A DNA stretch of 64,000 bases. Origin: a phage. Positions 47,413-52,420 of the stretch are shown in pieces (position 1 is the first letter of the stretch; every line of letters starts with the position of its first letter). The position numbers were made by a program, and so were the translations under genes. The notes beneath the pieces were generated by a model that was given only the letters and a program-made list of their open reading frames with translations, was not told the origin of the DNA and searched no databases. The stretch lies in sequence record PZ583742.1; one strand, 5' to 3'.

Positions 47413-47659
47413 GTTATTAGTTAATGTGCATTACCAGTTCAAATCTGAAGAAGCTCTCCAAAAGTATGCTGATATTTGTGAGCATAATAAAAGAACAGCT
47501 GCCATTGTTGGTCTGAAGCCTTTTAAAATTTTGGATTGCACCTTGAACAGAGCAAGGCGCTGGTGTAGTGTTGCCTGTCATGCTTCAGTTGAAGGGAATG
47601 ATTATTTTTTCATTACTTTCAATGCACAAGATTTTCATTTAATTAATGAATTAAAATAG
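47411..47659 (+). CDS. hypothetical protein
   Basis: First gene after terminator/promoter/RBS cassette. Confidence 0.45.
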   Translation: MLLVNVHYQFKSEEALQKYADICEHNKRTAAIVGLKPFKILDCTLNRARRWCSVACHASVEGNDYFFITFNAQDFHLINELK

Positions 47660-47689
47660 TGTACAAGCCCCTTGACTTAGGACATAATG
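47658..47689 (+). promoter_or_regulatory. early promoter-like element TGTACA-N17-CATAAT
   Basis: TGTACA 47660-47665, CATAAT 47683-47688. Confidence 0.45.
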
Positions 47690-48070: not shown

Positions 48071-48109
48071 CTTATGTTATAATGACTCTATCAACTACTG
48101 GAGAATAAA

Positions 48110-48427
48110 ATGAAAACCATTGATTGCAAGGCAGAATACAAAGTTTATTATCATGGGTCAAGCTCTAATGCTGGAATCCAAAATATGCTTTGCCCTCCTG
48201 ATGCAACTGGTGTTCTGTCAGAAGTTGGACGTAAGAAAAACCTGAATCGTGTGTTCTTTACTGAAGATATCGGTTTGGCTAAGATTTATGCTGGACGTGC
48301 AGCTCGTTCAGTGGGAGGAGAACCTCGTCTTTATCGTGTAATTGCTCCGGTAGATGTGGTTTGTTTAAATGATACTAAAGGCGCCACGGTTTATCATGCT
48401 GAATGGGCCTTCTGCGAGGAAATCTAA
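48110..48427 (+). CDS. hypothetical protein
   Basis: RBS GGAGAA. Confidence 0.45.
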   Translation: MKTIDCKAEYKVYYHGSSSNAGIQNMLCPPDATGVLSEVGRKKNLNRVFFTEDIGLAKIYAGRAARSVGGEPRLYRVIAPVDVVCLNDTKGATVYHAEWAFCEEI

Positions 48428-48637
48428 ATGGAAGAGTTTGCTAAAGTAGTTTTTATCGGTTGGTTTGAAAATGATAGCATGTTTACCAAAGAAATCCGCA
48501 TGGATATATCAGACAAAGAGCATATCATGTGGGCGACCATGAGTTTTGCTGAAGTAAATAAAGCATTGGTAAAAGCCTTTGTCAACGATGTGAAAGTGTT
48601 TGAATGTGATTGGCGCAACAAGCCTGAGGAAATCTAA
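48428..48637 (+). CDS. hypothetical protein
   Basis: ORF abutting upstream stop; its last 19 nt (ggaaatctaaatg junction) repeat the end of the previous gene. Confidence 0.4.
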   Translation: MEEFAKVVFIGWFENDSMFTKEIRMDISDKEHIMWATMSFAEVNKALVKAFVNDVKVFECDWRNKPEEI

Positions 48638-48877
48638 ATGAATATTACCTTAATGAAACCAACTCCCGGTTCTTTTTGGAACAAATCTTTTGGTAAGCAT
48701 AATATGTTTATCCAACGCACTGTAAGCAACTGGGAACTAGTTCTTTCAGTCGGCCACAACGATTATGAACAAGAATACGTAGAGTTCTTCGATTTTCCTG
48801 TGAAGCCTACTAAGCGTCAGATTCGTCAGACAAAACGTAAATTCCGTAAAATTTATTTGGAAGACGCATTAAAATAG
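48638..48877 (+). CDS. hypothetical protein
   Basis: ORF abutting upstream stop. Confidence 0.4.
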   Translation: MNITLMKPTPGSFWNKSFGKHNMFIQRTVSNWELVLSVGHNDYEQEYVEFFDFPVKPTKRQIRQTKRKFRKIYLEDALK

Positions 48878-48934
48878 TGTACAACAAAGGGATAATGCAG
48901 TATATTATCCCTATCAACTACTGAGGAGATTGAA

Positions 48935-49228
48935 ATGAAAAAGTTATTAATCGCAGCAATTCTTACCGTAGCATCATGTGGTACAGCTCCAGTTACTGCT
49001 GGACTTGATAAAGACCTTTGTGAGTGGTCTATGACTGCGGACCAGACTGATGTTGAACATCAGATTTATGCCGATATCATGAATATTACTAAACGTGACC
49101 GCCCAGATATGGTTAAAGAAGTATCTGACCAATTGACTTCTGGTGACGTTATGCAGTATAACTATGTTCTGTATTGCGATGCTTCATTTGACAACAGCAA
49201 GATTGTTCAATGGGTTACAGGTGAATAA
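48935..49228 (+). CDS. lipoprotein
   Basis: Signal peptide plus lipobox MKKLLIAAILTVASCG; RBS GAGGAGA. Confidence 0.5.
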   Translation: MKKLLIAAILTVASCGTAPVTAGLDKDLCEWSMTADQTDVEHQIYADIMNITKRDRPDMVKEVSDQLTSGDVMQYNYVLYCDASFDNSKIVQWVTGE

Positions 49229-49229
49229 A

Positions 49230-49667
49230 ATGATTAACAGAAATTTAGTTATCAAAAAACTTCGTTGTAAAAATCCAAATGCACAAGCATACAGGGCGTT
49301 TTGGAGCGACGACCATCAATACCTGGGTTATTTTCTTGTTGATAGTGATGATAGAATTACGTTTGCTCATAAACTTCTTAACAAAGAATTAAACCATTGG
49401 AAAGAACTTATTGCGGTCAAGTCCAAATTATTTTCTTGCAATACAATGCACCAATTGGTTTATTTTTTCGCTGATGGTATTCCTGACAAGGTTGAGTTTG
49501 ACGGGTTTGAATTTAAAGACATCAACCCTGATAATGAATTGAATGACAGTATTGTTAATATGGGTATCCCTGGCAAGTACATCAAAAACAGTCTTTTGAA
49601 AATTCTGGAAACCCCTGTTTATTCAGTTGACGACCAGATTTTTAATGCTTTCATGAAGCGAGATTAA
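49230..49667 (+). CDS. hypothetical protein
   Basis: ATG 49230; C-terminal 13 residues identical to next gene (SVDDQIFNAFMKR). Confidence 0.45.
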   Translation: MINRNLVIKKLRCKNPNAQAYRAFWSDDHQYLGYFLVDSDDRITFAHKLLNKELNHWKELIAVKSKLFSCNTMHQLVYFFADGIPDKVEFDGFEFKDINPDNELNDSIVNMGIPGKYIKNSLLKILETPVYSVDDQIFNAFMKRD

Positions 49668-49671
49668 TATG
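49629..49671 (+). repeat. 43-bp direct repeat, copy A (gene 3' end plus next start)
   Basis: gacgaccagatttttaatgcTttcatgaagcgagAttaatatg; 41/43 identical to copy B. Confidence 0.8.
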
Positions 49672-50019
49672 AATGATTACAATTTTCTGAATTTTGAACT
49701 GGCGAGCAATAATGATGGTAATGCTCATTATGAATTCCGCGACCCTCGGTTTAATCAGGCGATTGGTTATATTATCGTTAAAGATGATATTATCATAAAG
49801 GCTCGCTCATTCCTGGTAATGAAAGGACCTTATGAAGATACTCGCGGTTATCCGTTTGATAAAAAGAATGTGCGTGATTGCGCCGCCTGGATAACGGGAA
49901 ATCCCAAAATTGGAGTCATGTTATCTGATGAAGCGAACGACATTTTGAATGGGGTAGGCAAAGCTCAAGAACAGTCTGTCGACGACCAGATTTTTAATGC
50001 CTTCATGAAGCGAGGTTAA
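49669..50019 (+). CDS. hypothetical protein flanked by 43-bp direct repeats
   Basis: ORF whose start and stop each sit inside a copy of a 43-bp direct repeat. Confidence 0.45.
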   Translation: MNDYNFLNFELASNNDGNAHYEFRDPRFNQAIGYIIVKDDIIIKARSFLVMKGPYEDTRGYPFDKKNVRDCAAWITGNPKIGVMLSDEANDILNGVGKAQEQSVDDQIFNAFMKRG

Positions 50020-50023
50020 TATG
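49981..50023 (+). repeat. 43-bp direct repeat, copy B
   Basis: gacgaccagatttttaatgcCttcatgaagcgagGttaatatg; 352 bp downstream of copy A. Confidence 0.8.
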
Positions 50024-50242
50024 TTTGTTTTGACCCAATTCTCTAAAGCAATATATAGTTACTCTTGTCAATGGGAAGTCTTTATTGACACTCCGTCTCC
50101 CAAGTACGGAGTTTTTGGACGAGTAACTACTCAAGCTTACGTTGCTCGACCAACTAAACGCCAGATTCGTAAACTTAAAAAGGCACATCGTCAACTGATT
50201 AAAAGAAGGGAACAATATGAGTGCAATGTGTACGGGCTCTAA
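50021..50242 (+). CDS. hypothetical protein
   Basis: ORF-track ORF. Confidence 0.4.
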   Translation: MFVLTQFSKAIYSYSCQWEVFIDTPSPKYGVFGRVTTQAYVARPTKRQIRKLKKAHRQLIKRREQYECNVYGL

Positions 50243-50408
50243 GATTTCTGTCTTCCAGATTTTTGAAGAATATGAAATCGTATCGCAAGACCAAGAAGCA
50301 ATCCATGTTATCGCTGATGATGGTGTTACCTGGATTATTCCGTTGTATCATGAAGACACTTATGAAGTGACTGATGCAAATGGTGATAAAGCTATCTTCG
50401 TTGTATAA
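50217..50408 (+). CDS. hypothetical protein
   Basis: ORF overlapping upstream end. Confidence 0.4.
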   Translation: MSAMCTGSKISVFQIFEEYEIVSQDQEAIHVIADDGVTWIIPLYHEDTYEVTDANGDKAIFVV

Positions 50409-50427: not shown

Positions 50428-50595
50428 ATGAAAACATTCAAAGATTTTATCAACGAAAATATGGTTGCCGGTGATGCGGGTGGAAACCCAACTAATATCG
50501 CAACAGGTACCACTTCCGGGGCAGTTGTCAATAAAGGCCCTGAACAAATCCCATCAAAAAAGCGTAAGAACAAAGACGATAAACCTACAGTATAA
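50428..50595 (+). CDS. small internal-protein-like protein with capsid-targeting sequence (55 aa)
   Basis: N-terminus MKTFKDFINE (CTS-like, I-N-E protease site); exact late promoter TATAAATA at 50404-50411; RBS AAAGGGGG; below ORF-track size cutoff. Confidence 0.55.
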   Translation: MKTFKDFINENMVAGDAGGNPTNIATGTTSGAVVNKGPEQIPSKKRKNKDDKPTV

Positions 50596-50627: not shown

Positions 50628-51656
50628 ATGTCATATATTGATAAAGAATTTGCAGTCAGAGCTTTATCGTATCAACCACGTTATAGAGAAGTCACCGGGA
50701 GCACATTTAAAGCAAACTGTCGTTGCAAGGTTTGTGGGGACTCCCAGAAAGATTCACACAAGGCTCGATTCTGGGCGTATACTAATCCGACTGATGGCGC
50801 GGTTTACGTGAAATGTTTTAACTGTGACTACTCCACGCATATAAGCAAATACATAAAAGAGTTTGAGCCGGATTTACACCGGGAATATATGGTTGAGAAG
50901 TATAAGGAGAATGCATTTGGGCGACAACGCACTGAAGTTGCAGAAGCTCCGAAAGAACCAGAAAAAACTCCGGTTATTGAGCAGCTTGCTTTTTGTGAAA
51001 GACTCGATACTTTACCAGAAGCACATCCGATAATTAAGTATGTAAAAAGTCGGTGTATTCCGAGCAATGTTTGGAACCGGTTATGGTTTACAAACAAATG
51101 GCCTGCATTAGTTAACTCCGTTAATCCTGGGACGTATAAGAATGAAACGAATGAACCACGCTTGGTTATTCCTATCTTCAACGGCAAAAAAGAAATCGAA
51201 TCTTTCCAAGGACGAGCTCTTCGCAAAGATGCACCACAAAAATATATCACAATCAAAGCTCACCCAGAAGCTTCCAAAGTCTATGGCGTAGACAAGATTG
51301 ATGAGCGTAAACGCGTATGGGTAATGGAAGGTCCAATTGATAGTTTGTTTATCCCTAACAGCATTGCGATAACCGGTGGAACATTAGCATTGGAAGCTGT
51401 TCCTTACCCAGAAACCAGAGTATGGGTGATGGATTCAGAAGCAAGACATCCTGATACGATTAAACGTATGAAGAAATTAGTCGATGCAGGAGAAGCTGTT
51501 ATGTTCTGGGACAACGCACCGTGGCATACGAAAGATATAAATGAAATGATTAAATCGGAAGGAGCAACGCCTGAGCAAATTGAAGCCTATATGAATGATA
51601 ATATTGCACAAGGTTTAATGGCAAAACTTCGATTATCCAAATATGCAAAAATATGA
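50628..51656 (+). CDS. 61: DNA primase gp61
   Basis: N-terminal zinc ribbon CRCKVCGDS..x..CFNCDYS; TOPRIM-like VWVMEGPIDSLF; size and neighbourhood as T4 gp61. Confidence 0.9.
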   Translation: MSYIDKEFAVRALSYQPRYREVTGSTFKANCRCKVCGDSQKDSHKARFWAYTNPTDGAVYVKCFNCDYSTHISKYIKEFEPDLHREYMVEKYKENAFGRQRTEVAEAPKEPEKTPVIEQLAFCERLDTLPEAHPIIKYVKSRCIPSNVWNRLWFTNKWPALVNSVNPGTYKNETNEPRLVIPIFNGKKEIESFQGRALRKDAPQKYITIKAHPEASKVYGVDKIDERKRVWVMEGPIDSLFIPNSIAITGGTLALEAVPYPETRVWVMDSEARHPDTIKRMKKLVDAGEAVMFWDNAPWHTKDINEMIKSEGATPEQIEAYMNDNIAQGLMAKLRLSKYAKI

Positions 51657-52420
51657 ATTATCTAAAATTATATAATAAATTAATAGACAAAGGCCTCGCA
51701 AGGGGCCTAAACAAAAAGAATATCCCATTTTATACGGAGTCCCATCATATACTACCAAGGTGTTTGGGTGGACCTGACACCGAAGATAATTTGGTATTGT
51801 TATCAGCAAGAGAACATTTTATTGCACATTTGTTACTTTTTAAAATTTATCGACTTTCTAAATTAATGTTTGCTATACACCGGATGTGCGGTGACAAATT
51901 TGATAGCGCAAAATATGAATGGATGCGAAAAGAACATAGTAAAGCCGTTAGTGAACATATGTCAAACTTATGGAGTCAATCCGAGTTTAAAGACAAAATG
52001 TTAATTGCTTTACACAAGCGACATAACGACCACCCTGTGTCTGATAAAACCAAAAGTAAAATAGCTAACTCATTAAAATTGTATTATCAAAATAATCCAG
52101 TTACTGATGAACAACGGCAAAAGAATCGCGATGCACAAATGAGAAGATTTAAAGAAAATCCGCAAACCGAAGAAACGAAAAAGTTGCGGCGAGAAGCATG
52201 CCGAAAGGCAACTGGAACACCGGTTTGTAGATGCGATGAATTTGGTAATATACTTGAAAAGTATAATTCGGGAGCTGAGGCAAAGGAATTATTACAATTG
52301 GCGGGCAATACTCAAAATATATACACAGCTTGTAAAAGAAATAAAAAGACAGGCCGAATGTATAGGTCAAACGGCCATTTTTGGAAGTATCAAGACGAGG
52401 AAGGGATTCCGGTAAAGTAA
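51653..52420 (+). CDS. HNH homing endonuclease (Mob-like)
   Basis: HNH motif ESHHILPRCLGGPDTEDNLVLLSAREHFIAH; start overlaps gene 61 stop (ATGA); basic repeat-containing C-terminal half. Confidence 0.75.
   Translation: MNYLKLYNKLIDKGLARGLNKKNIPFYTESHHILPRCLGGPDTEDNLVLLSAREHFIAHLLLFKIYRLSKLMFAIHRMCGDKFDSAKYEWMRKEHSKAVSEHMSNLWSQSEFKDKMLIALHKRHNDHPVSDKTKSKIANSLKLYYQNNPVTDEQRQKNRDAQMRRFKENPQTEETKKLRREACRKATGTPVCRCDEFGNILEKYNSGAEAKELLQLAGNTQNIYTACKRNKKTGRMYRSNGHFWKYQDEEGIPVK

Follow-up and report, generated by a model that had tools for sequence, protein, structure and literature searches.

Why is a small gene in the counter-defense region of a T4-like phage bracketed by two copies of one short sequence, and do these copies take part in the gain and loss of that gene? 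The question arises from sequence record PZ583742.1, of which a stretch of 64,000 nucleotides (nt) was analyzed on one strand from 5' to 3'; this whole stretch is referred to as the window. It derives from a T4-like phage whose closest records, VR20, DK-13 and RZ (about 96% identity), are all Gapriverviruses. The bracketed gene is open reading frame (ORF) B (49669-50019, + strand, 116 amino acids (aa), phrog_4122), which is preceded by ORF A (49230-49667, + strand, 145 aa, phrog_8539, with its ATG at 49230). The locus is known as the "anti-TA (toxin-antitoxin) island", in which Dmd, TifA and AdfA each neutralize one host toxin (10.1101/2022.04.14.488369). ORF A takes the position that AdfA holds in T4, between sp and 61.1/primase, here called the AdfA slot. 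The repeat is the conserved 3' end of two related adjacent genes, an AdfA-type tail that is older than the gain and loss events, and this tail probably also serves as the joint at which ORF B is lost and acquired.

The two copies of the 43-nt repeat core, at 49629-49671 and 49981-50023, agree at 41/43 positions (two mismatches), and lengthening the alignment to 56 nt leaves 88% identity (49623-49678 and 49975-50030, both + strand), the spacing being 352 nt. The initial annotation had reported this core, and it is borne out: in 100 dinucleotide-preserving shuffles of the window, no match with three or fewer mismatches was obtained. The ORF coordinates likewise support its description of ORF B as precisely flanked, each copy comprising a gene end and the next ATG. 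Copy 1 contains the last 13 codons of ORF A (SVDDQIFNAFMKRD), the stop codon TAA and the ATG of ORF B, and copy 2 contains the last 13 codons of ORF B (SVDDQIFNAFMKRG), TAA and the ATG (50021) of a DUF7279 gene. Since codons of the upstream gene make up 39 of the 43 core bases, the repeat is located in coding sequence, inside an operon. The Shine-Dalgarno sequence reads GAGG in copy 2 and GAGA, a weakened form, in copy 1; the upstream copy, serving ORF B, carries a G-to-A change in this element, from GAGG to GAGA in Gapriverviruses and to AAGG in Tequatroviruses. The unit by which genomes with and without ORF B differ is 352 nt long (49672-50023, + strand) and consists of the ORF B body plus one repeat copy, its register being arbitrary within the repeat.

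The nucleotide identity of the two copies is modestly above what the common peptide alone gives. The same codon is used at 9 of 11 degenerate positions, compared to 5.1 expected from the codon usage of the phage (P = 0.018, or P = 0.006 when conditioned on copy 1), and several of the codons common to both copies are minority codons (GAC, AAG and CGA). Outside the tail, ORF A and ORF B show no excess likeness at the DNA level, with 211 identical positions versus 206 ± 4.5 in shuffled controls.

Comparison with related genomes for presence or absence of the 352-nt unit, which the initial annotation had proposed as a check, gave a positive and base-exact result. VR26 and the Dhakaviruses of the JS98/MX01 type retain a single junction copy and lack ORF B; relative to the window, they miss exactly the 352-nt unit. 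For a census, the deleted junction of VR26 was used as query, and the 60 records listed among 83 matching ones were classified. Of these 60, 22 records (19 different Gapriverviruses) match in two pieces about 805-823 nt apart and have ORF B, and 38 match in one piece and lack it, the latter being VR26 and Dhakaviruses (e.g., JS98, IME08, WG01, QL01, MX01 and VR5). The Mosigvirus PNJ-6 is also without ORF B.

The difference can be given a direction in VR26. On either side of the slot, this Gaprivervirus matches VR7 at 95-100% identity, with the exception of a mosaic patch inside ORF A that resembles VR20 and the window. Its tail is that of VR7 ORF A, of a type ending in KRD that is not present in Dhakaviruses, and its downstream gene is 98.6% VR7-like. 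Because the flanks and the downstream gene are VR7-like and the tail is foreign to Dhakaviruses, VR26 lost ORF B within this lineage and did not import an ORF-B-less Dhakavirus segment. All five sites that separate the two tails of VR7 are of the A type in VR26, placing the crossover in the final 8 nt, TTAATATG. Apart from this event, the middle of ORF A (49382-49581) is found as two very different alleles, one in VR7 (L005) and VR25 (L016) and the other in the window, VR20 and VR26, with 61-69% nucleotide identity between them. As this region is flanked by 95-100% identical sequence, allelic replacement has taken place inside ORF A too.

A polarized gain is seen in UGJNEcP3, which is filed as a Dhakavirus. 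Its flanks are 90-100% identical to L013, a Dhakavirus without ORF B, and 59-92% identical to the window, whereas its ORF B is 95-99% identical to that of the window. At the informative sites, the switch from window type to Dhakavirus type falls inside repeat copy 2, between 49978 and 50004, with 19 sites in a row being of the Dhakavirus type, and the tail of its ORF B differs from the single tail of L013 at 1 of 46 nt. ORF B was acquired here on a Dhakavirus backbone, probably through a homologous exchange in which the tail formed the right-hand arm. Both tails of UGJNEcP3 (L004 2345-2360 and 2697-2712) end in TGA, the stop codon of its Dhakavirus relatives, the upstream tail being otherwise of the Gaprivervirus type (KRD); this shared TGA may be a one-site trace of conversion between the copies after acquisition.

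Other sequence boundaries are located close to the junction as well. Around the slot, identity between the window and VR20 amounts to 96-99%, except for a mosaic patch of 29 mismatches at 49789-49958, which ends just before copy 2. Within this patch, covering the 3' half of ORF B, the window is 85.6% identical to VR20, its closest genome overall, and 94.8% identical to UGJNEcP3, and identity to VR20 is back at 97-98% at the tail. In EAWsc9, a Gaprivervirus in which ORF A and ORF B are both present, the second DUF7279 gene is absent and the ORF B tail is joined directly to the phrog_3249 gene. The junction (L034 2630-2650) lies in the 6-nt microhomology AATATG, found in the window at 50018-50023 and 50214-50219, and the missing unit measures 196 nt.

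The slot is similarly variable in Tequatroviruses and Mosigviruses. RB51 and the metagenomic contig L030 have the order sp, AdfA (tail ending in NKG), a B-like gene (tail ending in NRG) and 61.1, with the two tails 358-361 nt apart. AdfA alone is present in T4, L019, L020 and L029, and the B-like gene alone in T2 and L026. The tail of T4 AdfA is identical to the tail of the RB51 B-like gene (0/46 nt differ) and differs at three sites from that of RB51 AdfA; such a chimeric, B-type tail is consistent with what a deletion with an early crossover would leave. When the AdfA and B-like region of RB51 was used as query, 158 of 635 Tequatrovirus and Mosigvirus records covered at least 80% of it, so that both genes are present in these. 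An evenly spaced sample of 60 records falls into rough quarters: both genes, AdfA of the Mosigvirus type only, the T4 type and the B-like gene only.

All genes found in the slot after sp have a common ending, [VI]DDQIFNAFM[KN][RK][GD], followed by the stop codon and (T/A)ATG of the next gene. The carriers are ORF A and ORF B in Gapriverviruses and Dhakaviruses, AdfA of T4, RB51 and L030 (208-210 aa), AdfA of Mosigviruses (216 aa) and the B-like gene of T2, L026, RB51 and L030 (108-119 aa, annotated as RB32ORF033c, "similar to gp61.2"). The gene downstream of the tail varies, being ORF B, DUF7279, 61.1 or phrog_3249. As each slot gene carries the tail, a tandem pair of such genes results in a direct repeat of 43-56 nt that brackets the downstream gene. 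The peptide is nearly invariant over four genera, while between genera the synonymous sites vary (GAT/GAC, CAA/CAG, GCT/GCC/GCA and AGA/CGA), which suggests that selection on the protein maintains the tail. In a megablast comparison with the RB51 AdfA and B-like region, the tail alone still matches a Dhakavirus (42 nt at 97.6% in phage C6). Furthermore, the most divergent relative of ORF A, P0036, is 34% identical overall and has its last 30 residues almost unchanged. A motif scan of IMG/VR returned 14 loci, among them L030. The 13-residue motif, found in four genera and three protein families, is likely a functional element of these anti-toxin proteins. The initial annotation had also considered that the repeat might be unconserved and relatives without polymorphism; this is contradicted by the conservation of the tail across four genera and the polymorphism of ORF B.

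Within one genome, the tails of the two slot genes differ at 1-5 of 46 nt (three in the window, two in VR20, five in VR7 and three between AdfA and the B-like gene of RB51). The B tails of Gapriverviruses and Tequatroviruses, which should be orthologous, differ at 6-8 of 46 nt. The tails group by phage lineage and not by gene, a pattern that fits exchange between tails.

ORF A and ORF B were also compared with AdfA. This small DarT1-binding protein is described as having no known fold, with residue 164 of RB69 AdfA controlling the binding, and T2 is described as lacking an adfA homolog (LeRoux et al., as summarized in PMC11257639). T4 gp61.2 corresponds to the Pfam family AdfA (PF23813, anti-DarT factor A) with 450 bits (E = 1e-135), the gathering cut-off of the family being 27 bits. 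ORF B reaches 19.8 bits, below this cut-off, with residues 32-116 aligned to profile positions 131-211, the C-terminal half, to which residue 164 belongs, and ORF A has no Pfam match, AdfA included. T2 gp61.2 (L006 1974-2300, 108 aa) scores 32.2 bits, above the threshold, over profile positions 126-211, and has the same tail; as it matches the C-terminal half of AdfA plus the tail, T2 has the C-terminal-half, B-like form. ORF A is restricted to Dhaka- and Gapriverviruses, and ORF B is annotated elsewhere as DUF2528, gp61.2-like or RB32ORF033c. ORF A and ORF B share with the AdfA proteins of T4, RB51 and Mosigviruses the slot, the C-terminal tail and the junction, as well as a small size class without known fold, but they are about half as long as AdfA. 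In BLASTP searches of ORF A against ORF B and T4 AdfA, only the tail aligns. Neither AdfA nor ORF B gave a solved structure, a fold match in the PDB or a match in PADLOC.

The predicted structures give further indications of kinship. The homolog families are narrow (36 proteins for ORF A and eight for ORF B) and the alignments underlying the predictions are shallow. AlphaFold predicts one succession of elements for both ORF A and ORF B, namely five strands, a helix and a strand, with moderate to good confidence in the core; the last ~45 residues of ORF A are of low confidence, and in both models the common tail has a predicted local distance difference test score (pLDDT) of about 35-55 and no predicted packing on the core. 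Foldseek searches are reciprocal: outside its own family, ORF A finds a protein of the B family as best match (E 1e-4), and ORF B matches the ORF A of VR25 (E 8e-4) and a 212-aa protein of AdfA length. When the tail was removed, hhalign of ORF A against ORF B gave a probability of 1.3% (E 0.04). Against the C-terminal half of AdfA, the histidine column of ...NIINHIAS... corresponds to Q75 of ORF A in a weak alignment that cannot be relied on. With moderate confidence, ORF A and ORF B are probably diverged tandem paralogs of an AdfA-related family. It is conjectural that T4 AdfA itself arose by duplicating one such domain internally or by fusing two, as its N- and C-terminal halves gave weak matches in hhalign.

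We consider it probable, with good confidence, that the tail copies are gene ends serving as a recombination joint through which ORF B is deleted and introduced. The T4-type recombination machinery acts on short homologies, and recombination between the two tail copies, within a genome or between sister genomes, would remove ORF B and leave a single, sometimes chimeric, tail. During mixed infection, recombination between genomes with the tail as one homology arm would insert or replace ORF B. The repeat, the base-exact indel, the polarized loss in VR26, the polarized gain in UGJNEcP3 with its crossover in the repeat and the three Tequatrovirus states are read directly from the genome sequences, and experiments on the same T4 locus suggest by analogy that the events proceeded through homologous or short-homology recombination. 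In VR26 and MX01 compared to the window, in T4 compared to RB51 and for the neighboring gene in EAWsc9, the ends of the indel fall at a direct repeat, of which the short form keeps exactly one copy. Of the description "recombination scar or cassette" in the initial annotation, gain and loss by recombination is supported; the repeat is not a scar made by insertion, as it existed before the events.

Several observations weigh against this account. All evidence stems from the comparison of finished genomes, and no event was directly observed. In the Tequatroviruses and most Dhakaviruses the direction of change is unpolarized, and the single copy could be ancestral instead of the product of a deletion. 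The VR26 crossover drew on no more than 8 nt of identity, at the edge of the repeat, and may have been a microhomology event that had no need of the full repeat. For UGJNEcP3, the left boundary of the transferred segment is diffuse (49437-49611, in the 3' half of ORF A), and L013 is not its exact parent. The grouping of tails by lineage relies on very few variable sites. Finally, the common descent of the gene bodies is moderately supported: the tail-less hhalign comparisons of the ORF A, ORF B and AdfA bodies are weak (probability 1-13%), yet fall on the same core motif, and the Foldseek matches between the A and B families have TM scores of 0.44-0.57 and E-values of about 1e-4 to 1e-3 with the tails included.

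The explanation that comes closest to competing is that the repeat is a mere by-product of paralogy and protein constraint, with an essential C-terminal peptide and a coupled stop, ribosome-binding site and start, and has no part in gain or loss. The near-invariance of the peptide in four genera amid synonymous variation, the retention of the tail in P0036 and the A and B cores with the same secondary-structure order and mutual fold-search matches all speak for such constraint. However, it leaves unexplained that indel boundaries fall at the repeat in three genera, that the UGJNEcP3 crossover lies inside it, that the tail of T4 AdfA equals the B-type tail of RB51 and that codon identity is in excess, and as a full account we regard it as unlikely. 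The initial annotation had itself raised constraint at the protein level as a sufficient cause; constraint accounts for the existence and upkeep of the motif in four genera, whereas neither the breakpoints nor the excess codon identity follow from it. The two explanations are largely complementary, protein constraint stating why the repeat exists and not what happens there. An artifact of assembly or annotation, or a tandem duplication still in progress, has a practically negligible probability: mis-assembly can yield short direct repeats, but the same two-copy arrangement is found in dozens of independently sequenced genomes of two genera, and the gene bodies have no DNA similarity above shuffled controls, as opposed to what a recent duplication would leave.

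Two further explanations would assign the variation of ORF B to known mobile or regulatory elements, and both are very improbable. T-even homing endonucleases cause co-conversion of flanking markers, and ORF B could have been moved by homing, or carried along as a marker when a cut made nearby by such an enzyme led to co-conversion; the repeats would then be incidental. An HNH endonuclease ORF (51653-52420) indeed directly follows the primase gene in the window, and UGJNEcP3 has an annotated homing endonuclease downstream of primase. Nevertheless, the 352-nt unit encodes ORF B alone, and VR26, VR20 and VR7 have no annotated endonuclease at that position. Moreover, as the ~1.3 kb of UGJNEcP3 from ORF B to the end of the primase gene is of the resident, Dhakavirus type, the imported tract does not run on to the endonuclease site. 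It is equally hard to see the repeat as a structured or regulatory element flanking an ORFan, such as a mobile PeSL (promoter-early stem-loop) cassette, which combines an early promoter and a stem-loop terminator. The T4 and T2 tail contains TAATGCTTTT, 12 nt and TAATAT, which resembles a MotA box with a -10 element; the MotA-box-like TGCTT is TGCCT in copy 2 and in most Gaprivervirus and Dhakavirus tails, and as it varies like a synonymous site, a middle promoter of this kind was rejected for the window. No sigma-70-like promoter is found in 49623-49678 or 49975-50029, the nearest promoter-like match starting at 50030, and neither copy contains a terminator-like hairpin. For four versions of the junction, RNA folding does not surpass that of shuffles (z -0.60 to +1.06), and the T4 RefSeq record has no regulatory feature there.

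The resemblance to PeSLs in behavior is nonetheless close. These cassettes bring about a shuffling of modules in T4-type phages (Arbiol et al. 2010, PMC2839356; Comeau et al. 2014, PMC4122927); they flank variable genes in hyperplastic regions and mediate insertions, deletions and mini-circles (PMC2839356). In both cases, conserved repeats of ~50 nt bracket non-essential genes in hyperplastic regions and act as recombination sites for excision, insertion and replacement that spare the neighbors. The difference is that PeSLs are intergenic and consist of a sigma-70-like promoter and a terminator hairpin, whereas the repeat described here is a protein tail with a translational junction, located within coding sequence in an operon. 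With promoter, terminator stem-loop and intergenic location all lacking, its identification as a PeSL was rejected.

The proposed use of the tail as a joint also has precedents nearer to the locus. At the T4 dmd-tifA locus, segmental amplification and deletion occur at flanking homologies of 6-10 bp, and a single copy stays behind where the ends are joined (Srikant, Guegler and Laub 2022; 10.1101/2022.04.14.488369). These events concern the same island, involve direct repeats flanking a counter-defense gene, leave one copy and presumably are driven by phage recombination, as here, and the VR26 junction (8 nt) and the DUF7279 deletion of EAWsc9 (AATATG) are of exactly that microhomology size. 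However, they were selected in the laboratory and used arbitrary microhomologies, while the events considered here are natural, recur across genera, include gain by exchange between phages and involve a long (43-56 nt), conserved coding-plus-junction repeat common to all slot genes. A further parallel is the concerted evolution of tandem paralogs by unequal crossing-over or gene conversion, in which likewise a common segment is closer within a lineage than between orthologs and copy number changes by crossover in that segment. In contrast to such systems, the homology is confined here to the last ~45 nt plus the junction, the gene bodies having diverged past recognition at the DNA level. Homology-mediated modular shuffling is already known in T4-type phages; in a search of the open-access literature, no paper was found that describes the AdfA-type tail of these genes as a site of recombination or that treats T4, T2 and RB51 as one cassette locus in three states.

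The remainder of the island contains further repeats and variable genes. Its gene order in the window is helicase 41 ... phrog_2110, dmd, DUF7279, sp, ORF A, ORF B, a second DUF7279 gene, phrog_3249, 61.1, primase gp61 and the HNH endonuclease ORF; the counterpart stretch of T4 reads dmd, 61.4 (tifA), sp, 61.2 (adfA), 61.1, 61 (T4 RefSeq record). On the + strand, dmd (48428-48637) and the first DUF7279 copy (48638-48877) lie upstream of sp (spackle, 48935-49228), which marks where the AdfA slot begins on its upstream side in every genus examined. The second DUF7279 copy (50021-50242, + strand) is the downstream partner of repeat copy 2 and is followed by the phrog_3249 gene (50217-50408, + strand), which stands directly after the tail, in place of DUF7279, in Mosigviruses and EAWsc9. 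Next are 61.1 (50428-50595), primase gp61 (50628-51656) and the HNH-type ORF (255 aa), which overlaps the stop of the primase gene and is probably a mobile insertion, as no gene is annotated there after primase in VR20, VR7 and VR26.

The DUF7279 family is called similar to T4 gp61.4 in the annotation of relatives, and gp61.4 was renamed TifA by Srikant et al. (10.1101/2022.04.14.488369). The two DUF7279 paralogs of the window (Pfam E 2e-19 and 3e-20) have in common a 21-nt stretch of 86% identity that encodes PTKRQIR. The region of the first copy is highly variable in relatives, with 51-63% identity between the window and VR20, where a gene of 342 nt takes this place in the latter. A perfect 15-nt direct repeat, GAGGAAATCTAAATG, at 48416-48430 and 48626-48640 (210 nt apart) brackets dmd; it consists of the last codons ...EEI, the stop and the next ATG, a junction bracket of the same kind as that of ORF B, and VR26 has a different gene where the window has dmd. 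In addition, an exact 17-nt repeat, ATTAAAATAGTGTACAA, follows two gene ends at 47650-47666 and 48868-48884 (1218 nt apart), each copy overlapping a sigma-70-like promoter match (TGTACA-17-CATAAT and TGTACA-17-TATATT), and a 23-nt repeat is found at 48078-48100 and 48901-48923. The 17-nt and 23-nt repeats look like repeated early-promoter cassettes and could be PeSL-like.

For the biology of these phages, the locus provides a sequence-resolved example of how T-even phages change their counter-defense gene content in nature. T2, which has been described as lacking adfA, possesses in gp61.2 a counterpart of the C-terminal half of AdfA, and T4, T2 and RB51 represent three states of one cassette locus. 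A more far-reaching and doubtful idea, to which we give a low probability, is that the tail is a dual-purpose plug, acting both as a flexible docking peptide that joins different anti-toxin heads (AdfA, the B-like protein and ORF A) to a common partner or fate and as a DNA connector. If so, the junction of stop, Shine-Dalgarno sequence and ATG would let T-even phages of different genera swap, stack and drop heads in frame and within the operon, leaving the neighbors undisturbed, and the slot would amount to a counter-defense cassette system in which a coding tail plays a role akin to attC or PeSL sites, without a dedicated recombinase. On the preferred account, in which recombination uses the tail as its joint, a gene of the AdfA slot can be dropped or acquired cleanly, in frame and within the operon, because all slot genes end in the same ~45-nt tail plus junction.

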